From a virus (Duplodnaviria > Heunggongvirae > Uroviricota > Caudoviricetes): a stretch of DNA of 38,083 nt. A program made the translations under genes and the position numbers. This document shows, piece after piece, positions 6,943 to 38,083 of the stretch. The stretch lies in the IMG/VR virus record IMGVR_UViG_2913192161_000003, positions 1 to 38,083 of that record. The stretch is one strand, 5' to 3'. The notes beneath the pieces are model-generated. The model made no database searches. It saw nothing but the letters and a program-made list of their open reading frames with translations, and had not been told where the DNA came from. Position 1 is the stretch's first letter. Each line of letters begins with the position of its first letter.

Positions 6943-7317
6943 ATGGAACTTCAAGAGTGGGTTGATAGGTTGCGGTGGCTGAGCCATGAACAGATCGTTC
7001 AAGTTCATTTCGGGCTTCAGGAAGAGATTAAGAAATATTACAAACTGAGGGATGAAGCTAATAATCTTGCGCGCGCTGAGCATCTGTGTGAGCAAATGAT
7101 TGCTCTTTCAGAATTGGCATTTCCGGCGCTGAAGAGGGCTCATGATAAAAGAGTAGAAGAATATGAGTCGTTAACTGGCAACAAGTACCCGAGCGAATTC
7201 TATCCGCCATCACACTATGGATTTTCTCAGTTAGTGGTGATCTTGAAGAAAAGAAAGGATTACAAGCGGATTGAAGAACTTCGTGAAAAGATGATTAAAG
7301 AGGGGTGGAGGTGCTAA
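6943..7317 (+). CDS. Hypothetical helical protein (124 aa), AT-rich cargo gene convergent on cI
   Basis: Strong RBS GAAGGAG upstream of ATG; lower GC than flanks; sits where rexAB lie in lambda but on the opposite strand; followed by hairpin GCCCGG-TAA-CCGGGC (7318-7332). Confidence 0.6.
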   Translation: MELQEWVDRLRWLSHEQIVQVHFGLQEEIKKYYKLRDEANNLARAEHLCEQMIALSELAFPALKRAHDKRVEEYESLTGNKYPSEFYPPSHYGFSQLVVILKKRKDYKRIEELREKMIKEGWRC

Positions 7318-7331
7318 GCCCGGTAACCGGG

Positions 7332-8024
7332 CTATGCGAATCTTTTATAATCTATCGACTGTCGTAAAAGCACTCTTGCCATTACATAGAACTGGTCTTC
7401 ATCACCAGGCTCAACATACCACTTCTCGTAAATAGGGTTATCAGAGATTACAGCCAGGCGGTCACGCTGCATCTGAAGTCGCTTGACGTGTAATGTTTTA
7501 CCAAAAGCAAAGACATAAACGCCATCACTGTCGAATGCAGTGACGCCGATATCAACAAAGATTTGGTCTCCCGGAGAAATTGTTCCATCCATGCTGTCAC
7601 CGCTAACTGTGATGACCTTTATATTTTCAGCTGGGCGGTTACCGAACAGAGAGCGCGCTTGCTCAGATGTGTATTCAATAGCTCTAATGGTTTCAATGAA
7701 ATCGCTGGTAACTAAGGCACCCGGGCCCGCACTGGCTTTAACGTCGAGAACATCCACGCGATAGATCCCACTGTTTGGCTTTCTAACCTTGTATAGTGTA
7801 GGGGATTCATTTGCGCTACCGGCAAACATTTCACCTTCGCCAGTAGACAGCCATTCCGGACGCACACCGAGAACCGATGCAATTTCTACAGTTTTGCGTG
7901 AGCTGCTCGCACCATTCAATAGCTTATTAACGCTGGATTGCGCCATCCCTACAGCTTTTGCGAGCCTGCCCTGCGTATATCCTGCGGAAGACATCGCATG
8001 CGCTAAGCGCTCAGAGAATTCCAT
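7332..8024 (-). CDS. cI: CI-like prophage repressor (HTH + S24 LexA-like peptidase domain)
   Basis: N-terminal HTH (QGRLAKAVGMAQSSVNKLL), C-terminal S24 motifs (SGDSM serine, downstream lysine); divergent from the Cro-like gene; start taken at ATG 8024 (track begins on GTG 8030). Confidence 0.85.
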   Translation of the reverse strand: MEFSERLAHAMSSAGYTQGRLAKAVGMAQSSVNKLLNGASSSRKTVEIASVLGVRPEWLSTGEGEMFAGSANESPTLYKVRKPNSGIYRVDVLDVKASAGPGALVTSDFIETIRAIEYTSEQARSLFGNRPAENIKVITVSGDSMDGTISPGDQIFVDIGVTAFDSDGVYVFAFGKTLHVKRLQMQRDRLAVISDNPIYEKWYVEPGDEDQFYVMARVLLRQSIDYKRFA

Positions 8025-8056
8025 ACACACCCCTTAAAAACACTTTCTTTAATCCT

Positions 8057-8097
8057 ATCGCCTATGCGATTATTTAGCAAAAAATCGCATAGGCGAT
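8057..8097. promoter_or_regulatory. OR-like operators: two 14-bp palindromes ATCGC-N4-GCGAT
   Basis: ATCGCCTATGCGAT (8057-8070) and ATCGCATAGGCGAT (8084-8097), 27 bp centre to centre, in the cI/cro divergent intergenic region. Confidence 0.6.
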
Positions 8098-8125
8098 TGA
8101 CATTCGCCAGGGTGATAATCATAAT
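8097..8125 (+). promoter_or_regulatory. Putative PR promoter for the Cro-like gene
   Basis: -35 TTGACA (8097-8102), 17-bp spacer, -10 CATAAT (8120-8125); the -35 abuts the second operator. Confidence 0.55.
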
Positions 8126-8152
8126 CGCTTAAAATTGATAGTTGAGGTGATT

Positions 8153-8383
8153 ATGAAAAACCCCGCAGTAGAAAAGGCGATTGCCATTGCTGGCAGCCAG
8201 AAAGAGCTGGCGAAACGTTGTGGGAAGGCCCAATCAACGATCTGTGACTGGCTGAATGGCAAGAAGCGAATTTCGCCAGTCCATGTGCTCGACCTTGTTA
8301 ATGCGGTTGATGGGGAGATTAAGGCTTACGAGTTTCGTCCAGATCTCCCAGCAATTTTTCCGCATCCGGGCTCCATCGCCTGA
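8153..8383 (+). CDS. cro: Cro-like HTH regulator
   Basis: ORF 8135..8383; start taken at ATG 8153 (MKNPAVEKAI) after GAGGTG RBS; HTH segment (QKELAKRCGKAQSTICDWLNGKK). Confidence 0.7.
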   Translation: MKNPAVEKAIAIAGSQKELAKRCGKAQSTICDWLNGKKRISPVHVLDLVNAVDGEIKAYEFRPDLPAIFPHPGSIA

Positions 8384-8481
8384 GCCGCGCAACAGCTCAC
8401 CGCTCTTTAACAATCTGGAACCCTATTAAACCGGCTGAGTAATCAGCCAATTATTAACTATTCAACGATAGAGATAGCGAT

Positions 8482-13419: not shown

Positions 13420-13526
13420 CCAGAGACGAGATAGCACGGTACCAGGCAGAAAGCGTTAAGCGCGCCAGCATGCCACCAATAGCAAAGCACACTAAAACCA
13501 GCCAACCACAGAAGGAAGCCGCTTAA
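13416..13526 (+). CDS. Small hypothetical protein (36 aa)
   Basis: GTG start overlapping the rusA stop; stop overlaps the Q start. Confidence 0.25.
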   Translation: MTRDEIARYQAESVKRASMPPIAKHTKTSQPQKEAA

Positions 13527-14215
13527 TGAACACTCAATACCTCGAATACGTTCGCCAGCAGCTGATTGTGGCCACGGCAGATATGAGCGGAGCAACGAAA
13601 GGTCAACTGGTAGCATTCGCCGAGAACGCGATGTTTACAGCCACTCTACGCAGCCGGGGCAGGATGAAGGTGGTCAACCCGGTGAACGGGCGTTTAATGA
13701 ATCCCAATAACCCGCCGATCCCCGGCCAGCAGTCACGCGCGAAAGGCTCCCACATTCCACTGGTCAACCCGGTGGAGTTCTCTACAGCATCATGGCGCCG
13801 CGCGGTACTGTCGTTGGACGAACACCAGAGGGCGTGGCTGCTATGGAGCTACAGCGAGAACGTGCGCTTCGAATATCAGGTGGCGATAACCCAGTGGGCG
13901 TGGGCAGAGTTCCTGGAGCAGCTCGTCGCGAAGAAGATGGCTGGCAAGACGATGGAGCGCCTGAAGAAGCTTATCTGGCTGGCGGCGCAGGACGTCAAAG
14001 CGGAGTTGGCGGGTAAGGATGCCTACGAATACCAGGCGCTGGCAGAACTTGCTGGCGTGGCGAAATCCACTTGGACAGAAACCTATCTTCCTCACTGGCT
14101 GGCAATGCGCAACAGCTTTAAGCGGCTCGATAGCGGCTCGCTTATGGCCGTAACGCGATCACGATCACAACAAAAGTCGACAAATTATCAGCAAGATATT
14201 GCAAAACCGAACTGA
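13526..14215 (+). CDS. Late-gene antiterminator Q-like protein
   Basis: 229 aa at the end of the nin region, immediately upstream of tandem intrinsic terminators and the lysis cassette; family by position and recall. Confidence 0.6.
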   Translation: MNTQYLEYVRQQLIVATADMSGATKGQLVAFAENAMFTATLRSRGRMKVVNPVNGRLMNPNNPPIPGQQSRAKGSHIPLVNPVEFSTASWRRAVLSLDEHQRAWLLWSYSENVRFEYQVAITQWAWAEFLEQLVAKKMAGKTMERLKKLIWLAAQDVKAELAGKDAYEYQALAELAGVAKSTWTETYLPHWLAMRNSFKRLDSGSLMAVTRSRSQQKSTNYQQDIAKPN

Positions 14216-14219
14216 AACG

Positions 14220-14283
14220 CTTATATTTCATGTAAATCTGATATCGTCGCCATAGCTTTGGTTGTCGACCGAATTACAAAAAT
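14220..14283 (+). promoter_or_regulatory. Putative late promoter / Q-utilisation region
   Basis: Positional inference only (between the Q stop and the first terminator); exact -35/-10 not resolved. Confidence 0.3.
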
Positions 14284-14311
14284 AGCCCCAGTTAATCGCT
14301 GGGGCTTTTTC
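14284..14311 (+). terminator. Rho-independent terminator (tR-prime-like)
   Basis: Stem AGCCCC/GGGGCT with 11-nt loop followed by TTTTT. Confidence 0.7.
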
Positions 14312-17271: not shown

Positions 17272-18547
17272 TCTGCAGATCCCCGCGAAGCTCGTTCCTG
17301 TATTCACCGCCGAGAATGTCCGTTACCGCTGCGCTTATGGTGGCCGTGGTTCGGCTAAGACGCGCACCTTTGCTTTGATGAGTGCTGTGCGCGCTTACGA
17401 GAAAGCAGAGGCGGGGATAAGTGGCGTGATTGTGTGTGGCCGCGAATACATGAACTCCCTCGAAGAGTCGAGTATGGAGGAGGTGAAGCAGGCAATCCGC
17501 GCCGTGCCGTGGCTCAATGATTACTTCGACATTGGTGAAAAGTACATCCGCACGAAGAACCGTCGCGTCAGTTACGTGTTCTGTGGCCTGCGGCATAACC
17601 TCGACAGCATCAAGTCGAAGGCGCGCATCCTGCTGGCATGGGTGGACGAAGCCGAATCGGTGTCTGATGTCGCCTGGAAAAAACTTCGTCCGACAGTGCG
17701 AGAGAAAGGATCTGAAATCTGGGTGACGTGGAACCCGGAGAAAGACGGCAGCGCCACTGATAAGCGATTCAGGAAGACCCCGCCGAAGAAATCCATCATC
17801 GTCGAGATGAACTACAACGATAACCCGTGGTTCCCCGATGTGCTGGAAGAGGAGCGACAGGACGACCTGGCAACTCTCGACTACGCCGATTACGCGTGGA
17901 TATGGGAAGGCGCATACCTCGAGAACTCCAACAAGCAGGTGCTGGCGAATCGCTATGTGGTGCAGAGCTTCCCTGATGACCTTTGGGAAAAGGCTGATCG
18001 CCTGCTGTTCGGCGGTGACTTCGGTTTCGCCGAAGATCCGTCAACACTGGTTCGCAACTTCATTCTCGATAACTGCCTGTATATCGAATACGAGGCCTAC
18101 GGCAAGCACGTTGAGCTCGACGACATGTGGAAGTTCTACGCCGGTAAGGATGGGGCGAAACCTCGCCAACTCGAAGAATGGAAAGTTACCGACGAGGCGA
18201 CATTCCCCGGCATACCAGAGGCGCGCCGCTGGCCTATCAAGGCGGATAACTCGCGGCCTGAGACAATCAGCCACATCAAGGCGCAGGGATTCAATATCTC
18301 AGCCGCCAAGAAGTGGCAGGGCAGTGTAGAAGATGGCATCACCTATCTGCGCGGGTTTAAGAAAATCATCATTCACCCGCGCTGCAAAGAGACGGCAAAA
18401 GAAGCCCGACTCTATTCCTACAAAACGGATCGCGTCACCAGTGAGGTGCTGCCGATTATCGAAGACAAAAACAACCACTGTTGGGACGCTGTCCGGTATT
18501 CACTGGATGGGCTGATCCGCAGAAAAGGGAAGGGCATTTTCTCATGA
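17255..18547 (+). CDS. Terminase large subunit
   Basis: Walker A-like YGGRGSAKT, ATPase and nuclease acidic motifs; ORF begins at TTG 17240, first ATG at 17255. Confidence 0.85.
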   Translation: MGATADLQIPAKLVPVFTAENVRYRCAYGGRGSAKTRTFALMSAVRAYEKAEAGISGVIVCGREYMNSLEESSMEEVKQAIRAVPWLNDYFDIGEKYIRTKNRRVSYVFCGLRHNLDSIKSKARILLAWVDEAESVSDVAWKKLRPTVREKGSEIWVTWNPEKDGSATDKRFRKTPPKKSIIVEMNYNDNPWFPDVLEEERQDDLATLDYADYAWIWEGAYLENSNKQVLANRYVVQSFPDDLWEKADRLLFGGDFGFAEDPSTLVRNFILDNCLYIEYEAYGKHVELDDMWKFYAGKDGAKPRQLEEWKVTDEATFPGIPEARRWPIKADNSRPETISHIKAQGFNISAAKKWQGSVEDGITYLRGFKKIIIHPRCKETAKEARLYSYKTDRVTSEVLPIIEDKNNHCWDAVRYSLDGLIRRKGKGIFS

Positions 18548-20109
18548 ACTGGAACTGGCTTAAGTGGTTTCGACCAAAAGCAGCAGTAATTGTTGAAGAG
18601 GCGAAGCCTGAGCCGGAAAAGAAGAAACGAGCAGGCACCTTCTCAACGCACAAGCAACATGCTTCATTCAGCCTGGATGATATCGAGCGCACTGCATTCC
18701 CCGTCAGGGCTGCACGTCCTGTTGATGCATCCGGTAAAGCAATGGATGAGTCGTGCGCTCAATCACCGTCTGCTGGGTATCGCTTCTCAACTATCGGCGG
18801 CGTACCGGACAACATCGTTGGCTGGTTCCTGTCGCAGAGCTTCATCGGTCATCAGCTGTGTGCCGTCATGGCTCAGCAGTGGCTGGTTAACCGTGCATGC
18901 AAAATCCCACCAGAGGACGCCACGCGCAACGGCTGGAAGATAACTGGCGTTGATCCGGAAAAGGTTCAGCGCCTGGAGAAGATCGACCGCAAGCGAGGAA
19001 TCAAACGTCAGGTGCAGGAGTATGCGCGCTTCAATCGGGTATTCGGCATTCGTATTGCCATCTTCTGTGTGGACAGCGACGACCCGAAGTATTACGAGAA
19101 GCCATTCAATATCGACGGTGTGCCAGAGGGTGGTTACCGCGGCATCAGCCAGGTAGACCCGTACTGGTGCGCACCTGAACTGGAAGGTGTGGATGTAACT
19201 GACCCATCGTCAGAGAACTTCTACGAGCCGACATACTGGCGCATAGCCAACAAGCGTTATCACCGGTCACACCTCGTCATCATTCGTTACTCAGAAGTCG
19301 CTGACGTGCTCAAGCCGACGTATCTGTTCGGTGGGCTGCCGTTGCCTCAGCTCATCTGGGAGCGCGTGTATGGCGCTGAGCGGTCGGCGAACGAAGGGCC
19401 GCAGTTGTTGATGTCTAAGCGGCTTAACGTCGTTAAGACTGACCTTGCGGAAGCGATGGCAGACCCTGACAACTTCCTGACGAAAATTCAGGAGTTCGTC
19501 GAACGTCGTGACAACTTCGGTGTGATGCCCATTGGTGACAGTGATGGGTATGAGCAGCACGAAACCTCTCTTGGCGACGTCGACTCAGTAATCATGACCG
19601 AGTATCAGCTCGTCGCGTCGGTTGCGGAGATGCCAGCAACGAAACTCCTCGGCACATCGCCGAAGGGATTCAACCCAACCGGTGATTTCGAGATGTCAGC
19701 TTACCGTGAAACGTTGGCCGGCATTCAGGAGCACAGCGGCACGCCGTTCCTGAATAGACATTACCAGTTGCTGACCAAATCAGAGTTCGGCGAGAGCATG
19801 GATATCGAAGTGGTGTGGAATCCGCTGGACGAACCTACCGAAACCGAGCAGGCGCAAACCGGCCTGGCGAAGGCGCAGACAGCTCAGATTTATCAGGAGC
19901 TGGGTGTGGTTAGCGCGAAACAGAACCAGCAGAAGCTAAAGGATGACGAATCCAGCGGCTACGAGTTTGAGGAGGTAGACGATGGCGGAGAAGAAAACGA
20001 CGGACTTGCAAGAGCAATCGCGGCCGTTCTTCAGCCCCCTGTATCTGGAGCAGCAGTACCAGCGACGGCTCCGACGCCTGGTAAACTGGATGAAAGGCAA
20101 CCTGTCTGA
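18544..20109 (+). CDS. Portal protein
   Basis: 521 aa starting at MNWNW (ATG 18544 overlapping the terminase stop); position and size typical of a portal. Confidence 0.75.
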   Translation: MNWNWLKWFRPKAAVIVEEAKPEPEKKKRAGTFSTHKQHASFSLDDIERTAFPVRAARPVDASGKAMDESCAQSPSAGYRFSTIGGVPDNIVGWFLSQSFIGHQLCAVMAQQWLVNRACKIPPEDATRNGWKITGVDPEKVQRLEKIDRKRGIKRQVQEYARFNRVFGIRIAIFCVDSDDPKYYEKPFNIDGVPEGGYRGISQVDPYWCAPELEGVDVTDPSSENFYEPTYWRIANKRYHRSHLVIIRYSEVADVLKPTYLFGGLPLPQLIWERVYGAERSANEGPQLLMSKRLNVVKTDLAEAMADPDNFLTKIQEFVERRDNFGVMPIGDSDGYEQHETSLGDVDSVIMTEYQLVASVAEMPATKLLGTSPKGFNPTGDFEMSAYRETLAGIQEHSGTPFLNRHYQLLTKSEFGESMDIEVVWNPLDEPTETEQAQTGLAKAQTAQIYQELGVVSAKQNQQKLKDDESSGYEFEEVDDGGEENDGLARAIAAVLQPPVSGAAVPATAPTPGKLDERQPV

Positions 20110-20728
20110 TGAGTTACTGGCAACCAGTGGCCCATCGCTCGACTCAAAACTGACAACACTGTCTGGCAAATACGCCAACCTGTTCCGCGATTACGCCCCC
20201 ACGATGTTTAACCCGGTACTCGACGGCGCTGATAAGTCTACTCAGCGGCAATTCACCGCGCTGAAACTTGACGATGCCGTTAACGCTGATGCTGTGCGCG
20301 GGTACTTCCGTGACGCAGCGCAGAAGAATGCACAACTGATATCGACGTTGCCGACGGACCACATCGAGAGGATTCGAAAGGCTGTGGCCGAGTCGCCTGG
20401 CGATCTGTCCGCGCTGAAAGACATCCTGTCTGATGCCAACGGCAAGCTCGACCGTCGCTCACGAAACATCGCAATGGACCAGACGCGAAAGGCGTACAAC
20501 GACACGGCAATGATGAAGGCCCAGGCAACTGGGGCAACCAAAGGCATCTGGATCCACTCACATCGAGGCCCTGCGCATTCCCGTCCTAAACATGTTAAGG
20601 CGCACGGTGAAGAGTTTGACCTTGCCGTTGGCCTTCCGGTGGGCGATAGCGGTCAGAACGTCATCCCCGGAGAGGAAATTAACTGTCGTTGCACATTCAA
20701 ACTGGTGGTCGACTTTGGAGTGAAATAA
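19982..20728 (+). CDS. Head morphogenesis protein (MuF / SPP1 gp7 family)
   Basis: GAGGAGG RBS before ATG 19982; C-terminal PGEEINCRCT motif; overlaps the portal 3-prime end by 128 nt in another frame. Confidence 0.7.
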   Translation: MAEKKTTDLQEQSRPFFSPLYLEQQYQRRLRRLVNWMKGNLSDELLATSGPSLDSKLTTLSGKYANLFRDYAPTMFNPVLDGADKSTQRQFTALKLDDAVNADAVRGYFRDAAQKNAQLISTLPTDHIERIRKAVAESPGDLSALKDILSDANGKLDRRSRNIAMDQTRKAYNDTAMMKAQATGATKGIWIHSHRGPAHSRPKHVKAHGEEFDLAVGLPVGDSGQNVIPGEEINCRCTFKLVVDFGVK

Positions 20729-23582: not shown

Positions 23583-23588
23583 TTTAAG

Positions 23589-23610
23589 GGGCTTCGGCCC
23601 CATTTCTTTC
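23589..23610 (+). terminator. Hairpin terminator after the major capsid gene
   Basis: GGGGC-TTCG-GCCCC stem-loop followed by a T-rich stretch ATTTCTTTCT. Confidence 0.6.
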
Positions 23611-25772: not shown

Positions 25773-25784
25773 CGAGGATTGCTG

Positions 25785-27311
25785 ATGAGCATCTCTATCA
25801 AGAAATACGTGGACATTACGTCCGGCGTAGGAGGCAGCGCGGCCGTTAAAGAGCGCGAGCTTATCCTTCGCCTGTTCACGAAGGACACGAAGGTTCCTGC
25901 TGGCGTAGTGATGGAATTTACCGACATTAACGATGTTGCCACTACCTTTGGTACCGCGTCTGAGGAATACAAACGCGCTGCGCTGTATTTTGGCTTTGTG
26001 TCGAAAATTATCACCAAGGCAAAAAAACTCTCCTTCGCGCATTACAGTGATGCTTCTTCTGCGGCTGCACCGGGGATTGTCGGCGGTACTCCGATGACAA
26101 CCATCGCGACATGGCAGGCCATCACTGACGGTGTTGTTCGTATCACTGTTGGCCAGTCTGATTACCTGCTTGACGATCTCGACTTCTCTTCAGCTGTAGC
26201 TCTGGCTGATGTGGCAGCCGCTATCCAGACCAAACTCCGGGGTATTCTCGGCGGTGCGACGGTTACTTACGACTCTCTGGAGCAAAGGTTCAACGCGTCG
26301 TTTGTTGGTCATGATGTTCCTGCGGCTGTAAACGTGATTGCTGCGGGGACCGGTGTCGATATCGCCGACAACCTTGGCTGGACCATCGCGAAAGGTATGG
26401 TTACCTCTCCGGGGTCAAATGCCACAACCACTCTCGATTATGTGATCGAGGCGGATGAAATTAGCGACAATTACGGCTCATTCGCTTTCTGCGGCACCGC
26501 GCTTACTCATGACATCGTGCAGGGTATCGCAGCGTGGAACGCAACGCAGAACGTTAAATACATGTACCTGGTGCCGGTGACAATGGCTGATTACGGCGCA
26601 TGGTATGGAACGCTGCAAACCTATAGCGGCTGCGCGATGACCATCGTCAACGACGCCAACACAGAGTTTGATGAACAAATTCCCGGCATTATCCTTGGCG
26701 CCACCGACTACAAACAGCGCAACGCCAGCCAGAACTACATGTTCCAGCAGGTGTCAGGTATCACTCCGAAGGTTGATAGTAATACTGACGCCAATGCGAT
26801 CGACACTGACACTCGCGTGAACTACTACGGGCGCACGAAGAACGCAGGCCAGGCCATCGATTTTTACCAGAACGGCTATCTGTGCGGCACCAATACGGAT
26901 CCGCTGCAGATGAACGTTTATGCCAACGAGCAGTGGTTTAAATCGGCCGCGACCGCAGTGCTGATGTCTGGTCTTCTGTCATTGCCAATCATCCCGGCAA
27001 CGGAAGAAGGGCGCGCTATCGTGATCAGCCTTCTTAACGGCGGTGATGATGCGCCAATCCCGCGCGCGCAGTTCAACGGCACTATTAAGGCCGAGAAGGA
27101 TTTGACGGTTACGCAGAAGGCTTACGTCACCCAAATCACTGGTGACCCGCTGGCCTGGCACCAGGTGCAGTCAATTGGCTACTGGCTTGATGCCTCCGTG
27201 CAGCAGGAGTCGCAGACGAACGGCACTATCAAATACGTTATCGACTATCTGCTGGTCTACTCGAAGGCCGATGCAGTAAACAAAATAACCGGTCGGGATA
27301 TCCTGATTTAA
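25785..27311 (+). CDS. Tail sheath protein (DUF3383-like)
   Basis: About 508 aa immediately upstream of a tube-sized gene and followed by a strong terminator; family by recall and position. Confidence 0.6.
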   Translation: MSISIKKYVDITSGVGGSAAVKERELILRLFTKDTKVPAGVVMEFTDINDVATTFGTASEEYKRAALYFGFVSKIITKAKKLSFAHYSDASSAAAPGIVGGTPMTTIATWQAITDGVVRITVGQSDYLLDDLDFSSAVALADVAAAIQTKLRGILGGATVTYDSLEQRFNASFVGHDVPAAVNVIAAGTGVDIADNLGWTIAKGMVTSPGSNATTTLDYVIEADEISDNYGSFAFCGTALTHDIVQGIAAWNATQNVKYMYLVPVTMADYGAWYGTLQTYSGCAMTIVNDANTEFDEQIPGIILGATDYKQRNASQNYMFQQVSGITPKVDSNTDANAIDTDTRVNYYGRTKNAGQAIDFYQNGYLCGTNTDPLQMNVYANEQWFKSAATAVLMSGLLSLPIIPATEEGRAIVISLLNGGDDAPIPRAQFNGTIKAEKDLTVTQKAYVTQITGDPLAWHQVQSIGYWLDASVQQESQTNGTIKYVIDYLLVYSKADAVNKITGRDILI

Positions 27312-27323
27312 CGAACCTGATAA

Positions 27324-27348
27324 GGCTGCCGTGCGCAGCCTTTTTTCT
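27324..27348 (+). terminator. Rho-independent terminator after the sheath gene
   Basis: GGCTGC/GCAGCC stem with 5-nt loop followed by TTTTTT. Confidence 0.7.
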
Positions 27349-27359
27349 GGAGATAACAG

Positions 27360-27809
27360 ATGCAAGACATCGCAGGCTTTGGCCTACAGGTTCGCGTCAT
27401 CGCGAGCAAGACGTATCCTTCCGGGTTCACGATCACTGAGTTCCCTGATGACGCTGACCCATTCGATCTGCCAACCTTGCAGATCAACGATGCAGCTATG
27501 GGGCTCAACGGCGATATGGTTCACTGGTCTAAGGCTAACCCAATTCCTCTGGCAATTGCGGTGATCCCCGGCGGTGAAGATGACAAAAATCTGGCAGTCG
27601 TATTTGAAGCCAACCGTGCTGCTCGCGGTAAGCGCCCCGCAAAAGACACCATCACCATCGTCGGTACGTATCCGAACGGCTCCACCATTACGCTTACGCC
27701 GGGTATCATTTTTGATGGTCTCCCGGGTAACGCTGTAGCGTCAGCGGGCCGTATGAAATCGAAGGTATATAACTTCCGCTTTGAAGGCATGAGCCGGGTA
27801 GAGGTATAA
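27360..27809 (+). CDS. Tail tube protein (DUF3277-like)
   Basis: 149 aa directly after the sheath gene; GGAGATAAC RBS. Confidence 0.55.
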   Translation: MQDIAGFGLQVRVIASKTYPSGFTITEFPDDADPFDLPTLQINDAAMGLNGDMVHWSKANPIPLAIAVIPGGEDDKNLAVVFEANRAARGKRPAKDTITIVGTYPNGSTITLTPGIIFDGLPGNAVASAGRMKSKVYNFRFEGMSRVEV

Positions 27810-27810
27810 C

Positions 27811-28263
27811 GTGGCTGAATTACTGGAAGCGAAAAACGTCACGGTGAAAGACCGGGCCGGTAACGATGTACCGTTTATCATCGGTAAGTTTCCTGCCATT
27901 GCAGCGCGGGAGATTGCCGCGAAGTATCCAACCTCGATTGCGGCACTGGCGAAGCAGTGGGAAGAGAACCAGTACGCTGAGAGTGAGAAGATCATGCTCA
28001 AGGCGATGACGTTCGTTGATCGCGTACTGGATGACGGCTCAACCATTCGCCTGACCACTGCGGCTCTGGTTGATAACCATGTGCCGGACGGCGAAGCGTT
28101 GATGCGTCTTGAGAAAGAGTTGCTCGAGTATAACTTCTCTTTTTTCGAAAAGTTCACCCGCTCCATTTCCTCCGGCGGTATCGTGCAGAATATGATCAAG
28201 TTGATTACGTCAACGCTGACCAGTTCATTGCAACAATCCTCTCGGCAGGACAAGCAACCCTGA
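27811..28263 (+). CDS. Tail assembly chaperone (G-like), with -1 frameshift extension to 28379
   Basis: GTG start; slippery heptamer T_TTT_TTC at 28140-28146; the -1 frame is open from 28146 to the TGA at 28377-28379 (checked codon by codon). Confidence 0.6.
   Translation: MAELLEAKNVTVKDRAGNDVPFIIGKFPAIAAREIAAKYPTSIAALAKQWEENQYAESEKIMLKAMTFVDRVLDDGSTIRLTTAALVDNHVPDGEALMRLEKELLEYNFSFFEKFTRSISSGGIVQNMIKLITSTLTSSLQQSSRQDKQP
28140..28146 (+). other. Putative -1 programmed ribosomal frameshift slippery site (U UUU UUC)
   Basis: X_XXY_YYZ heptamer in the zero frame of the chaperone gene; the conserved position between tube and tape measure genes supports a G/GT-type frameshift. Confidence 0.55.
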
Positions 28264-28432
28264 CAGAACTGAAGACCTCCGTCACGCTGGAGGAGGCCTT
28301 TAGCCTTTGGGAAATTGTCATGACTACACGGTTTAACGAGTGGTGGGCAATGGAGCAGATCAATAAAAAACGAAGTTGAGATCGAAAATTCATACCGCTT
28401 TCGCCGCCTGTGATATTTTTACGGAGATATCA

Positions 28433-28915
28433 ATGCCATTGGTGAGGATGGTCGTGAAATATTCTGACTTCAAAAAAATGCCGTACAGGCAGCGAAGAGA
28501 TTACATAAAAGGCGGCGGTAAAGTAGAGCGGACGTTAGGGCAAAAGGTTGTTTACTACGGGTCAACGATCTTTATTGTTCTGGTGGCTATCTCGTTTGTG
28601 AGGTCGTGCTCAAATCAGCCCAGAGATAACCAGTACATCTCTGACATGATGATCGCGATATGCACTACCGAAGTTAAAGAAAGAATCAAAGATCCAAGCA
28701 GCTTCGACGCTGACAGATCAAACACCATTACGACCAGCACTACTGACGGTTACAGTGTTGACATGGTGTTCCATGCTAAAAACTCTTTTGGTGCCACGGT
28801 TCCTGGTTCAGCAAAATGCACTTTCAGCAAGTTAGGTGAAGATAAAAAACCATTGCTGGAGTCCAAAGAGAAGGCAGTTATGACGTCGATATCTGTTAAC
28901 GGGAAGAGAGCATGA
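28433..28915 (+). CDS. Cargo gene 1: single-pass membrane protein of unknown function (161 aa)
   Basis: ORF 28376..28915 begins on TTG; ATG 28433 has a GGAG RBS; basic N-terminus, TM helix (VVYYGSTIFIVLVAISFV), about 100-aa C-terminal domain; AT-rich; possible sigma70 promoter TTCATA-17-GATATT at 28389-28417. Confidence 0.55.
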   Translation: MPLVRMVVKYSDFKKMPYRQRRDYIKGGGKVERTLGQKVVYYGSTIFIVLVAISFVRSCSNQPRDNQYISDMMIAICTTEVKERIKDPSSFDADRSNTITTSTTDGYSVDMVFHAKNSFGATVPGSAKCTFSKLGEDKKPLLESKEKAVMTSISVNGKRA

Positions 28916-29424
28916 TGGATGAGATTATTTCTGACTTGGTAGAAAAACACGGCATAGATAGTTCTCTCGCCGCCCAAATAGCTAACGATTTTCTGGAAAT
29001 GGATTTTGATAAGTTTCAAGTTGAAATGTCAGAGCTTGAACTCGCGGTCCTTAAGTCTTGGGGTGGGTCTCAAGAGTTATCGGCACTTTTAATCGAGAGA
29101 TATTCAGGAATAAACGCTAAGAAAGTTGGATTTATTGCAGCTAGATTTTGCTGCAAATATGTATCCTACGCAAACATTAATAAGTTATTAAAGGCTGGCG
29201 TCAAGAGTGGGGAATGGATTTATGGTGGTGCCGTGTGTGAGCATGCGGAGTTGGCATCGAAAAAATTCAATCTTTCTGAGGGCGCTAACTTTAACGGAAT
29301 TAATATCTTCCCAGGAAGGGAGTGGGATTGCCGTTGTTCGTCTAAACCCATAATCGACTTCTTCGACGAAGAGGAGAAAGTTCCGCCCAAAAAAGGCTTC
29401 TTCGCTAAGTTGTTTGGTAAATAG
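28912..29424 (+). CDS. Cargo gene 2: protein with a MuF-like C-terminal region (170 aa)
   Basis: ATGA-coupled to cargo gene 1; C-terminal segment FPGREWDCRCS resembles the C-terminus of the head morphogenesis protein in this window (IPGEEINCRCT); AT-rich. Confidence 0.55.
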   Translation: MMDEIISDLVEKHGIDSSLAAQIANDFLEMDFDKFQVEMSELELAVLKSWGGSQELSALLIERYSGINAKKVGFIAARFCCKYVSYANINKLLKAGVKSGEWIYGGAVCEHAELASKKFNLSEGANFNGINIFPGREWDCRCSSKPIIDFFDEEEKVPPKKGFFAKLFGK

Positions 29425-29446
29425 CCATTTCTTTATAAGTTAACAA

Positions 29447-29468
29447 CCCCGCTCTGCGGGGTTTTTTA
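29447..29468 (+). terminator. Rho-independent terminator closing the cargo cassette
   Basis: CCCCGC-TCT-GCGGGG hairpin followed by TTTTTTA. Confidence 0.75.
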
Positions 29469-29479
29469 TTGGAGCCAGC

Positions 29480-31204
29480 ATGGGCATTCTCGACACGTTT
29501 GTATTTCTCCTGGAAACAGATAACCGTGATGCGTTACGCGGATTGCGCGACACTGACCGTGCGCTTGGAGATGTAGAGGACGGTTCTAACAGTGCTCATA
29601 AATCCATGCTTGGCATGTTTGATGGCGTGCTGCAAAAAGCAGGGTTAACTAGCGATGGCTTTAAAGAACTCGCAGTAAGCGCCCTGGGTATAGCCGGGGC
29701 TGGCTTATCGCTCAATGCGATGCTTGATCATACAGCTGAAATGTTAGCCAAAGTTCAGGCTGCTGAAACAGTTGGTGTGAATATCGGCGAATATGACGCC
29801 CTGTCTAGGACGTTCCTGGCACTTGGCGTAGATGCTGACGGATTTCGTGACTCCATGATCGACCTTAACGAGGCGATGGGTGAGGCGGCATCCGATGCAA
29901 AATCAGGGAAGGCTGAGTCATTCAAAACTTTTGGCGTCAGCCTGAAGGATGTCAAAGGCAACATCAAATCTGCTGATGAGGCGTTGCTCGAGTTATCCGA
30001 CACGATGTCGAAGATGGATAAACAGCAGGCCACTTTCCAGATCAAGCAACTTGGCATTACGGACAATGCCGTTATTGCCGCCATGCTGAATGGGCGCAAG
30101 GCACTGGAAAAGCAAATCCAACTGCAGAAAGAGTTGGGCGTCCTGAACGAAAAAGACGTAGAGCAACTTAAGCGATTCAAGCAGGCGCAAAACGAGTTAA
30201 ATACAATCTTCTCGCGATTTGCTGATCAGATAGCAATGAGTGTAACTCCGGCCCTCGAATTGTTAATTGAAACAACTCAAAAGGTAATCGCGTGGGGGCG
30301 TGAGCATAAAGTTTTCCTATTCACCTTCTTTGGAGCGCTTGCAACCGTAGCTATTCCCGCCTTGACCGCTTCATTATGGCGAATGGCGGCGGCGGCATGG
30401 GGTGCGATGGCTCCATTTATTCCAATCATTGCTGTCGCTGCTGCTCTGGGCCTAGTAGTGGAAGACCTCTGGCAGTACTTCAACGGCGGCGAATCAGTCA
30501 TCGGTGATCTGGTACAGAAGTTCCCTGCGCTAGCCGGTGTCTTAGAGAATGTGAAAGAAAGTTTCCTGGGGGCATGGGAGGCGCTGAAACTCCTGTTTTC
30601 CGATCCTTCACAATTCATGGATGTGCTGGTTGCAGAGCTGCAGGCCAGTTGGGATGAGATAGTTCAGGGTGTAGTCGATGCTGGCGATGCCATAGGAAAG
30701 GCTCTCAACAGTGCATGGGAGAAACTCACCGCTGACACCAAGAAAGTATTCAATGACCTGCTGTCATGGGTAAAGAACATCTTCTCCCAGATAGGAGCCT
30801 ACATTTCAGACGCCGTATCAAACGCAGGCAAGGCCGCCTATGACAAGTTGCCTGACTTCATGAAAAAGGCGATCAACGCCGTGAAGGGAGAGGACGAACC
30901 GAAATCGGTACAGCCTACGCCAGACGGCGTGGTTGATGACGTTAATCCAATCAAACAACCAATGCCGTCAGTGCAGGCCGCAAACAGCTCTATGCAGGAT
31001 ATTGCCAATGCCCCGGCAATACCGGCAAATCCAGGCGCAGGCCGCTCATCGAGGGTCAGTAACACACAAAACGTCAATGTCGCCAAGGTCGAAGTGACCA
31101 CGCAGGCCACTGACGCGCAGGGTATTGCCAGCAGTATGACCGATGGGCTGAAGAATGCTTACGGAGATATGGCAAACCAATATGACGATGGAAGGAGCCA
31201 TTAA
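29480..31204 (+). CDS. Tail tape measure protein
   Basis: 574 aa, helical with a hydrophobic central segment; GGAG RBS; position after the chaperone. Confidence 0.75.
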   Translation: MGILDTFVFLLETDNRDALRGLRDTDRALGDVEDGSNSAHKSMLGMFDGVLQKAGLTSDGFKELAVSALGIAGAGLSLNAMLDHTAEMLAKVQAAETVGVNIGEYDALSRTFLALGVDADGFRDSMIDLNEAMGEAASDAKSGKAESFKTFGVSLKDVKGNIKSADEALLELSDTMSKMDKQQATFQIKQLGITDNAVIAAMLNGRKALEKQIQLQKELGVLNEKDVEQLKRFKQAQNELNTIFSRFADQIAMSVTPALELLIETTQKVIAWGREHKVFLFTFFGALATVAIPALTASLWRMAAAAWGAMAPFIPIIAVAAALGLVVEDLWQYFNGGESVIGDLVQKFPALAGVLENVKESFLGAWEALKLLFSDPSQFMDVLVAELQASWDEIVQGVVDAGDAIGKALNSAWEKLTADTKKVFNDLLSWVKNIFSQIGAYISDAVSNAGKAAYDKLPDFMKKAINAVKGEDEPKSVQPTPDGVVDDVNPIKQPMPSVQAANSSMQDIANAPAIPANPGAGRSSRVSNTQNVNVAKVEVTTQATDAQGIASSMTDGLKNAYGDMANQYDDGRSH

Positions 31205-37309: not shown

Positions 37310-38083
37310 TTATATTTGCCTACCTCCTAATAAAATGTGTGAGGTGTATTTGTTGGTTTTCAATAACCTTGCTACAATTATGCAGGTGGTTACAATAAGG
37401 AAAACAAATGAAGGGGTTATGATGAGGTTATATATGAGTGGATTTTCGCATAGGTTATTAATGTTCACGTATGCCTCTATTCTGTAAAAAATAAACGACG
37501 AAATTATATAGATAGGAAATGTGTAAATACCGACAAAGGATGTGGTTCGTATAAATAAATTATTTTTCGTTGATAAAAATGTATATGCATATATAAGCGA
37601 CATGCTTCCGGCGAAGCCAATGAAGTAGCGAAATATAATAATGAATGATTGATGCCAGAAATCAACATTATCATATGTCATTTTAGATATGTAAATATAA
37701 TACTCCCTATTCCATAGGAGAAGCATACCAATCCATGTTAATACGGATAAGACACCAAGTTTGTGCCTATTTTTAGAGGCGAAGTCTAAAATGCGATGGG
37801 CGAATATACCAGCGATAAAATAAGGGGCCATAAATTTAATTTTGTCCATATTCCAATCATCTCCATATGCAAGAGATATACTAAAGAACAGTAAATAAAG
37901 CACCGCAGAATATTGTTTGCTTATTGAGTGACAAATAGTATAAGCAATAGATACTGCAAAGAGTGCGGAAAGGAACCAGAAGGCGTAGATGGCTCCATAT
38001 CTAATATTTATTAAATTTATATCTCTTCCCACAAAAATGGATTCAGCAATGAACCATGCAATGGATGGGATTATTAATTGCAT
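37310..38083 (-). CDS. Acyltransferase family 3 integral membrane protein (O-antigen acetylase-like), N-terminus beyond the window
   Basis: 257 aa visible, very hydrophobic multi-TM and aromatic-rich; strongly AT-rich; located after the tail fibre genes, a common place for lysogenic-conversion genes; the ORF runs to the window edge so the true start is probably outside. Confidence 0.65.
   Translation of the reverse strand: MQLIIPSIAWFIAESIFVGRDINLINIRYGAIYAFWFLSALFAVSIAYTICHSISKQYSAVLYLLFFSISLAYGDDWNMDKIKFMAPYFIAGIFAHRILDFASKNRHKLGVLSVLTWIGMLLLWNREYYIYISKMTYDNVDFWHQSFIIIFRYFIGFAGSMSLIYAYTFLSTKNNLFIRTTSFVGIYTFPIYIISSFIFYRIEAYVNINNLCENPLIYNLIITPSFVFLIVTTCIIVARLLKTNKYTSHILLGGRQI

Follow-up and report, generated by a model that had tools for sequence, protein, structure and literature searches.

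The window analysed here, a single stretch of 38,083 nucleotides (nt) corresponding to the IMG/VR virus record IMGVR_UViG_2913192161_000003, carries a two-gene cassette between its tail assembly chaperone gene and its tape measure protein (TMP) gene. We propose, with a probability of roughly 0.55, that this cassette is a horizontally acquired moron in which two independently mobile anti-phage accessory genes, hereafter gene 1 and gene 2, are stacked in one small transcription unit. We hold it highly probable that the block is hotspot cargo of the moron type; an anti-phage role, assigned by analogy, is more tentative and stands at slightly below even odds. The block is a low-GC segment of 1.1 kb (28380-29479) delimited by the stop codon of the frameshifted chaperone (28379) and the TMP ATG (29480). 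It has three of the features expected of a moron in the sense of Juhala and Hendrix: it is an insert between otherwise adjacent genes, its base composition is deviant (GC 0.40-0.45 over 28200-29400, against 0.52-0.56 in the flanking tail genes) and it ends in a predicted terminator of its own. The inserts of relatives are likewise low in GC (0.37-0.47, against 0.49-0.55 in their flanks). The two open reading frames (ORFs), 28433-28915 and 28912-29424, share an ATGA overlap, and the ratios of nonsynonymous to synonymous substitution rates (dN/dS) measured against the Citrobacter homologues were 0.06-0.09 for gene 1 and 0.09-0.11 for gene 2. Values of about 0.1 indicate that both ORFs are real genes under purifying selection, and a reading of either as a spurious ORF was dropped for this reason. 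An earlier note on this DNA (the original prediction) had described an acquired accessory insert of this size at the chaperone/TMP junction, with two overlapping ORFs at these positions and a strong terminator at its end, and this outline is confirmed.

We then compared the junction among relatives, using 13 related viral contigs fetched through the tube protein together with loci fetched through the cargo proteins. In the distant relatives (L015 and L017-L020) only 0-12 nt separate the stop codon of T from the TMP ATG, and this junction without insert is the ancestral state. In the close relatives the same site is occupied by low-GC inserts, 0.5-1.1 kb long, whose contents are of six kinds, all of them envelope proteins. 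Gene 1 and gene 2 occur together in the window and in L001, L002 and L003 (Citrobacter gillenii and C. portucalensis), and gene 1 occurs alone in L004 (Cronobacter turicensis) and in a metagenome contig (L007). The other contents are a 59-residue secreted protein with a DUF4236 membrane protein (minus strand; L008, L009), a tRNA_anti-like lipoprotein encoded on the minus strand (L010), a secreted tRNA_anti-like protein of 235 residues (L011, L012, L014) and a bPH_2 membrane protein (L013). The chaperone/TMP junction is therefore a variable cargo hotspot, as the original prediction had suspected. We also observed that in L005 (5415-6384) and L006 (4161-5130) the chaperone-TMP slot holds a minus-strand BrnT/BrnA-like toxin-antitoxin pair and a distant homologue of gene 1. 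Because the slot is thus filled in an unrelated, siphovirus-type contig, the junction serves as a cargo slot across tail types. A megablast search of 27300-30000 against a phage collection and complete E. coli genomes gave no match.

The variation extends beyond the insert into the adjoining gene. At the nucleotide level the window and L001/L002 are about 95% identical over the tail module, but only 76-81% identical between 28400 and ~30400, with recovery beyond that point; the divergent block comprises the cargo and the first ~900 nt of the TMP gene (29480 to ~30400). Over 12 loci, the identity of the N-terminal 300 residues of the TMP tracks the cargo type better than it tracks the backbone. 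L001 and L008, with different cargos, share 100% identity in the sheath and 76% in the TMP N-terminal region; L012 and L013, also with different cargos, share 97% and 85%, respectively; and L012 and L014, with the same cargo, share 96% and 95%. The TMP gene also has a mosaic make-up: the N-terminal third sorts with cargo type and the C-terminal third sorts otherwise (the window is 92% identical to L008 and 77% to L001 in that third). An indel-rich stretch of the gene is also seen around 30800-31200 when the window is compared with L001, L002 and L008.

The signals at the two ends of the cassette suggest a small transcription unit. The candidate sigma-70 promoter (TTCATA-17-GATATT, 28389-28417, plus strand) has an extended −10 element (TGtGATATT), and it is the sole plus-strand site of the window that combines at least 8 of the 12 consensus positions with the TG, 48 sites being found when the TG is not required. 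It is plausible that this promoter is real, in which case transcription starting near 28424 would leave a 30-nt leader before the GTG at 28454. At the other end, a terminator scan predicted an intrinsic terminator, AACCCCGC-TCT-GCGGGGTT followed by a T-run (29445-29469, plus strand), with a folding energy of -13.5 kcal/mol (centroid). Its hairpin (29445-29463) has 8 pairs, 6 of them G-C, and TTTTTTATT comes next; the T-run merges into the ribosome-binding site (RBS) of the TMP gene (GGAG), and the predicted terminator ends 10 nt before the TMP start. In the relatives, a common hairpin, AACCC(C)GC…GCGGG(G)TT, followed by TTTTTTATTGGAG and then by the TMP ATG, closes every plus-strand cargo and is absent from the loci without cargo. 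Terminator-like hairpins are also present 3' of the major capsid gene (23588-23601, plus strand) and of the sheath gene (27322-27342, plus strand). As the cassette is co-oriented with the late operon and has no terminator upstream, late transcription must also cross it, and the Q gene of the window makes late read-through of the cassette terminator plausible by analogy with lambdoid biology.

Gene 1 is predicted to encode a bitopic inner-membrane protein of 153 residues (28454-28915, plus strand). The original prediction had rightly described a single-pass protein, since one hydrophobic segment was found (Kyte-Doolittle 19-residue mean 1.92), and had started it at an ATG at 28433, which would give 160 residues. 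The start MKYSDFKK is conserved in five homologous loci, and its equivalent in the window is the GTG at 28454, preceded by GGTGAGG; this GTG is therefore probably the true start. A still longer version of 179 residues, from a TTG at 28376, was dropped because the upstream extension is unconserved and is absent in L004. The N-terminal tail has 31 residues, 10 of them K or R (MKYSDFKKMPYRQRRDYIKGGGKVERT…), and the model of the C-terminal domain, which has a predicted local distance difference test score (pLDDT) of 73, shows a single helix packed against a sheet of four strands. The predicted topology is N-in/C-out, with a basic cytoplasmic tail, one transmembrane (TM) segment and a periplasmic, putatively cystatin/NTF2-like domain that contains two invariant cysteines. 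A lipoprotein reading was dropped, since VRSC is a poor lipobox and the highly conserved basic N-tail of 31 residues favours a signal anchor; signal peptidase I might nevertheless cut the protein after VRS. The cytoplasmic tail is the best conserved part of the protein (mean pairwise identity 88%) and the periplasmic beta domain the most variable (60%).

The gene 1 family is small, with only 7 clusters among 5.8 billion proteins. Its most distant member (P0011, 38% identity) is the homologue found in the siphovirus-type contig of L005/L006, where it is encoded directly 5' of a TMP of 1443 residues. A tail-plus-TM module like that of gene 1 was also found in the DUF4236 cargo of L008/L009 (7295-7798, minus strand), with the pattern 'PYxxRR…KGGGKV + TM' (BLASTP E 7e-9); the module occupies the C-terminal part of that protein, which is encoded on the other strand, and is N-terminal in gene 1. 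PHROGs returned weak matches to families of unknown function, and the comparison of gene 1 with Pfam, NCBIfam and PADLOC gave nothing meaningful. A PDB profile search with the gene 1 family found no solved relative, and tblastn searches of gene 1 and P0011 against phages and plasmids gave no match.

Gene 2 (28912-29424, plus strand, 170 residues) had been presented in the original prediction as a soluble protein without a recognisable family, and both statements have to be revised. Its residues 28-157 match the core of MuF/SPP1 gp7-like proteins, and we refer to it as a mini-MuF. It matched phrog_324 (head morphogenesis) at 5.7e-9 and the prophage's own MuF by BLASTP with 26% identity and an E value of 2e-8, including the …CRC motif, and tblastn matched it to the MuF genes of Burkholderia, Klebsiella, Aeromonas and Pseudomonas phages. 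When the mini-MuF profile was aligned to the canonical MuF profile with hhalign, the probability was 99.75% (E 2e-27, 127 columns), residues 28-157 of gene 2 pairing with residues 117-248 of the prophage's own MuF, that is, with the whole conserved core. On these sequence comparisons gene 2 is a divergent MuF/SPP1 gp7-like core. It falls under the Pfam threshold, including that of the Phage_Mu_F (PF04233) hidden Markov model. NCBIfam and PADLOC gave nothing meaningful for this protein, PDB searches with the mini-MuF and canonical MuF profiles found no solved relatives, and a BFVD fold search with the gene 2 model returned noise.

An exhaustive phmmer search over 1.84 billion representatives retrieved 48 relatives of gene 2, about ten of them full-length (~170-208 residues, 27-36% identity). 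C109, H111, C140 and C142 (CxH…CxC) are invariant across the alignment of the mini-MuF family and likely form a metal site. Each member then has an acidic linker followed by a C-terminal basic amphipathic helix (KKGFFAKLFGK in the window), and this helix is kept although the family is only 26-36% identical; canonical MuFs stop just before the position of this tail. Gene 2 has no TM-like segment (Kyte-Doolittle 19-residue maximum 0.75), and the conserved helix, which resembles that of MinD, speaks against its being simply soluble. A reading as a MuF toxin was dropped, as only ~20 residues follow the core and there is no toxin domain; no small immunity ORF lies 3' of gene 2, where the terminator is found instead.

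Among the loci retrieved, mini-MuF relatives were found only in accessory slots, and only in phages and one satellite. The gene lies in L021 at the end of a P4-like satellite of Pseudomonas panipatensis (with an integrase, AlpA and a Toprim_3/DUF3631 primase). In that locus (7001-8424) we observed that the mini-MuF gene converges with a gene homologous to the baseplate hub gp41 of E217, so that two mimics of helper structural proteins stand side by side. The gene follows a Mnt/Arc-like ribbon-helix-helix (RHH) gene in L023, on the strand opposite the baseplate genes and beside an arc-ant block, and in L024-L026 the RHH gene and the mini-MuF form a pair opposite ninG and Q, beside HicAB. A module made of the RHH gene (79-85 residues), the mini-MuF and a bidirectional terminator thus appears in two unrelated prophage positions (L023 5423-8080; L024 6646-7549), the L023 copy inside the baseplate module and the L024 copy between Q and the lysis genes. 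Locus scans with P0014 and P0017 returned nothing, and the scan with P0012 returned only a canonical portal-adjacent MuF (L027). Gene 2 itself lies ~9 kb from the portal gene, inside the tail operon, and no mini-MuF relative was found portal-adjacent, while 85-87% of MuF genes are adjacent to the portal or terminase (PMC5576092). Our literature search found no description of mini-MuF proteins and nothing relevant on MuF-based defence or decoys.

We then asked whether the two genes form one system. The pair is present in four lineages, namely the window, L001, L002/L003 and P0004/P0007 (a single 2.7-kb contig). However, gene 1 is alone at the slot in L004 (which stands for 16 Cronobacter contigs) and in L007, and mini-MuF relatives occur without gene 1 in L021, L023 and L024-L026. 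Since each gene is found without the other, the pair of the window is best described as a lineage-specific stack of two mobile modules and not as an obligate system. The proposal that the cassette is a self-contained two-gene system or a toxin/immunity pair is thus contradicted by the distribution of its genes.

The scenario that we propose is as follows. In the lysogen, the weak extended −10 promoter would express both proteins while the terminator would prevent expression of the TMP; during lytic growth, the terminator would be overridden by polymerase modified by Q. At the inner membrane, gene 1 would serve superinfection exclusion: its fast-evolving periplasmic domain would intercept the TMP or tail-tip proteins of related incoming phages and so block the DNA channel and entry, in the way proposed for HK97 gp15. 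The MinD-like helix of gene 2 would keep that protein at the membrane, on its cytoplasmic side. MuF/SPP1 gp7 binds the portal strongly and supports the initiation of infection (PMC6316719; PMC5576092). Because gene 2 keeps the core that binds the portal in SPP1 gp7, it could act as a portal or genome-end trap; by mimicking the portal-binding MuF, it might capture the invader's portal or the incoming genome end and pilot complex. The two layers would act independently and not as an obligate pair. We speculate further that mini-MuFs represent an undescribed anti-phage class of prophages and satellites that acts by MuF mimicry and ties the invader's portal or entering genome end to the inner membrane. 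Stacked here with a periplasmic exclusion protein matched to the TMP, it would make up a double barrier to entry or assembly, encoded beside the TMP gene and co-evolving with it. We consider both the MuF-mimic mechanism as such and this extended version quite unlikely.

Several observations weigh against this scenario. The site TTCATA-17-GATATT put forward in the original prediction is present, with an extended −10, but it matches only 8 of 12 consensus positions, lies under the threshold of the consensus scan, which misses it, and is weak; among L001, L002, L004 and L007 it is partly conserved, kept in L004 and poorly so in L001/L002. Given the hairpins behind the genes for capsid and sheath, the presence of a terminator is not diagnostic by itself. 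In its MuF half the AlphaFold2 model of gene 2 cannot be relied on (pLDDT < 50) and therefore offers no structural support for portal binding, and a portal-binding mimic might also be harmful to the resident phage. PADLOC-DB v2 contains 0 families matching gene 1 or gene 2 at E <= 1, and a BLASTP comparison of gp15 with gene 1 gave no alignment with E <= 100. Exclusion of the HK97 type is documented for non-contractile tails; that it would also work with a contractile tail is assumed here. Finally, the covariation of cargo and TMP concerns 12 loci only and could reflect plain physical linkage.

Other explanations of the cassette have to be considered. An obligate two-component system, be it a toxin/immunity pair, an abortive-infection sensor with its effector, or defence plus counter-defence in the manner of Tab/anti-Tab, would account for the ATGA overlap, for the single unit between one promoter-like site and one terminator, for the conservation of the pair in four lineages and for the prediction of both products at the inner membrane. 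Morons that combine defence and counter-defence are indeed known, and the small RHH protein encoded just before the mini-MuF in L023 and L024 gives an order like that of antitoxin and toxin. We nevertheless regard this possibility as improbable, because gene 1 stands alone in L004 and L007, mini-MuF relatives occur with no gene-1-like neighbour and alone in L021, the conservation of the gene 1 cytoplasmic tail does not depend on whether gene 2 is present, and gene 2 has no toxin domain but only a tail of ~20 residues after the MuF core. It is about as improbable that the cassette serves the virion or its assembly, gene 2 being a second MuF that is packaged via the portal and injected, and gene 1 a helper of tail assembly, lysis or injection. 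This idea draws on the homology of gene 2 to a head-morphogenesis protein, on the MuF domains known to carry effectors for packaging and injection, and on the orientation of the cassette, which, being that of the late operon, implies late transcription. The cassette is nonetheless missing from relatives with near-identical tails (the L008 sheath is 100% identical to that of L001, with another cargo) and from all the distant relatives, its GC is low, a canonical MuF already lies beside the portal, and mini-MuFs are never adjacent to the portal or terminase and mostly face against the late genes. In addition, a membrane-targeting tail fits poorly with packaging in the capsid interior. Of the two products, gene 2 alone has a resemblance, and a distant one, to a structural family, and not all relatives have the pair at this junction.

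It is also conceivable, though we judge it unlikely, that the cassette is lysogenic-conversion cargo outside phage defence, acting in stress tolerance, in protection against colicins or contact-dependent toxins, or in colonisation. Morons have diverse roles in the host (lambda Lom and Bor; SopE), the contents of the slot are all envelope proteins, NTF2/cystatin-like periplasmic domains are generic binding modules, and an acyltransferase of a type usual in O-antigen conversion is present elsewhere in the prophage. A host-directed role would, however, leave aside that the gene 1 family is tied to the TMP position in two unrelated tail types and that the cargo covaries with the 5' region of the TMP gene; the MuF core suggests that gene 2 has its partner in a phage and not in the host, and mini-MuFs are confined to phages and one satellite. 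Two stacked anti-phage genes remain our preferred reading of the cassette. The anti-phage role named in the original prediction is therefore retained as the best guess, since HK97 gp15, with the same junction and layout, offers an analogy, and is abandoned in the form of an obligate pair.

The genetic setting is that of a lambdoid temperate prophage with an E217-type contractile tail, as judged from family-profile matches of the window proteins. An identical copy of the locus lies inside a contig of 922,759 bp of Escherichia sp. E10V10 (GCA_004211985.1), and it is therefore an integrated prophage. The window encodes a CI-like repressor (7332-8030, minus strand), O/P-like replication genes, an endolysin and the Q antiterminator (13526-14215, plus strand; PF06323 at 2.5e-85). 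Directly 3' of the Q gene an isrJ-like RNA was noted (Rfam RF01393, 47 bits against a gathering threshold of 37; 14231-14307, plus strand), which probably corresponds to the late-promoter leader or tR' region and not to a free-standing small RNA. The head genes include the small and large terminase, the portal (18481-20109, plus strand), the capsid genes and, adjoining the portal, the canonical MuF head-morphogenesis gene (19982-20728, plus strand; PF04233 at 7e-9), which lies outside the cassette and served as the comparator for gene 2. The portal ORF and the MuF ORF share 128 nt (19982 to 20109), and the real MuF start is probably further downstream than 19982. The E217-type tail is represented by the sheath (25779-27311), the tube (27360-27809) and hub and baseplate genes. 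The left flank of the cassette is the G-like tail assembly chaperone ORF (27811-28263, plus strand; weak phrog_20369 match), whose counterparts in L001 and L002, from Citrobacter, share 97-99% identity with it. A slippery heptamer T TTT TTC (28140-28146, plus strand) leads into a −1 frame T-like extension (28140-28379) ending at a TGA (28377-28379), read from the sequence, and this extension is kept as protein, at 42-97% identity, in every related locus. The right flank is the TMP gene (29480-31204, plus strand; phrog_8125 at 5.5e-36). Beyond the tail-fibre genes and on the opposite strand, an Acyl_transf_3 ORF (37310-38083, minus strand) is cut by the end of the window; it looks like a lysogenic-conversion gene of the O-antigen acetylase type and would be a second accessory locus of the prophage.

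The element as such belongs to a known type, the textbook moron, and the expectation that it might represent an undescribed kind of system was not borne out. What is new are the protein families, above all the mini-MuF, a head-morphogenesis domain reduced to its core, fitted with a putative membrane-targeting helix and relocated to accessory slots, the richness of the slot in E217-type prophages and the linkage of cargo and TMP. A slot with at least six envelope-protein cargos in Enterobacteriaceae phages offers a natural panel of candidate exclusion genes in near-isogenic backbones, and the cargo-TMP linkage, if functional, would open to genetic study the recognition of tape measures by exclusion proteins in phages with contractile tails.

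The closest known arrangement is that of HK97 gene 15, the first moron to be described, whose product gp15 is YebO-like. In HK97 (NC_002167) the stop codon of GT is at 8145, gp15 occupies 8203-8391, the terminator 8398-8422 and the TMP ATG is at 8435. The same chaperone-TMP slot is thus occupied by a spacer of 57 nt with a promoter-like site, a membrane-protein gene and a terminator whose T-run abuts the TMP RBS, with 12 nt left before the TMP; in both phages the GC of the insert is below that of the flanks and the insert is absent from related phages. HK97 gp15 mediates superinfection exclusion at the inner membrane, and which invaders it excludes depends on their tail tube and TMP region (PMC3594210; PMC10883804), a dependence that fits the cargo-TMP linkage described here. 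The differences are also clear. Gp15 has 62 residues and no periplasmic domain, whereas gene 1 has 153 residues and a predicted folded periplasmic domain; HK97 is a siphovirus with one gene in the slot, whereas the present phage is of the myovirus type (E217-like sheath and tube) and has a second gene there. The cassette therefore appears to resemble the gp15 moron in slot and design, while not belonging to the gp15/YebO family. To the membrane-anchored NTF2-like domains of the VirB8/TraM/DotI and Tim21/Tim44 types, gene 1 has an identity of only 2-15%; the fold is generic and there is no secretion-system context. The closest viral models to the gene 1 fold are uncharacterised phage lipoproteins and membrane proteins.

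With MuF/SPP1 gp7 (PF04233), gene 2 shares the H…CxC motif and the P-G-x-E/W-x-C-x-C signature. Unlike canonical MuFs, it lacks the N-terminal ~115 residues, is not adjacent to the portal or terminase and has an extra cysteine (CxH); unlike MuF toxins, it ends in an acidic linker and an amphipathic helix, with neither a toxin domain nor a downstream immunity ORF. The membrane-targeting sequence (MTS) of E. coli MinD is KGFLKRLFGG (PMC5471200). As in MTSs of the MinD/FtsA type, the helix occupies the extreme C-terminal ~11 residues, and KGFFAKLFGK (window) and KGFFSRLFGG (P0003) are identical to MinD at 6-8 of 10 positions, with similar charge and hydrophobic moment. In contrast to MinD, the helix is borne by a MuF core and not by an ATPase, and it could dock on a protein partner instead of the membrane.

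Small prophage-expressed genes in or near late operons that act against TMP or ejection proteins of related phages are a recurrent theme (Tab, Tai and the injection blockers P22 SieA, TP-J34 Ltp and Sie2009), to which the cassette can be likened. Tab (from JBD26; PMC10884400) and Tai (PMC11364771) are prophage or satellite morons that block virion assembly by targeting the TMP or tail assembly. No homology to them was detected here (PADLOC was negative), their positions differ, Tab being flanked by the terminase genes on both sides and Tai preceding the packaging module, and their counter-defence genes have no identified counterpart in the cassette. The satellite mini-MuF beside a hub homologue (L021) nevertheless fits the same theme of interference with assembly. 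If mini-MuFs truly interfere with portals or genome entry, they would be the head-directed counterpart of the tail-directed Tab and Tai.

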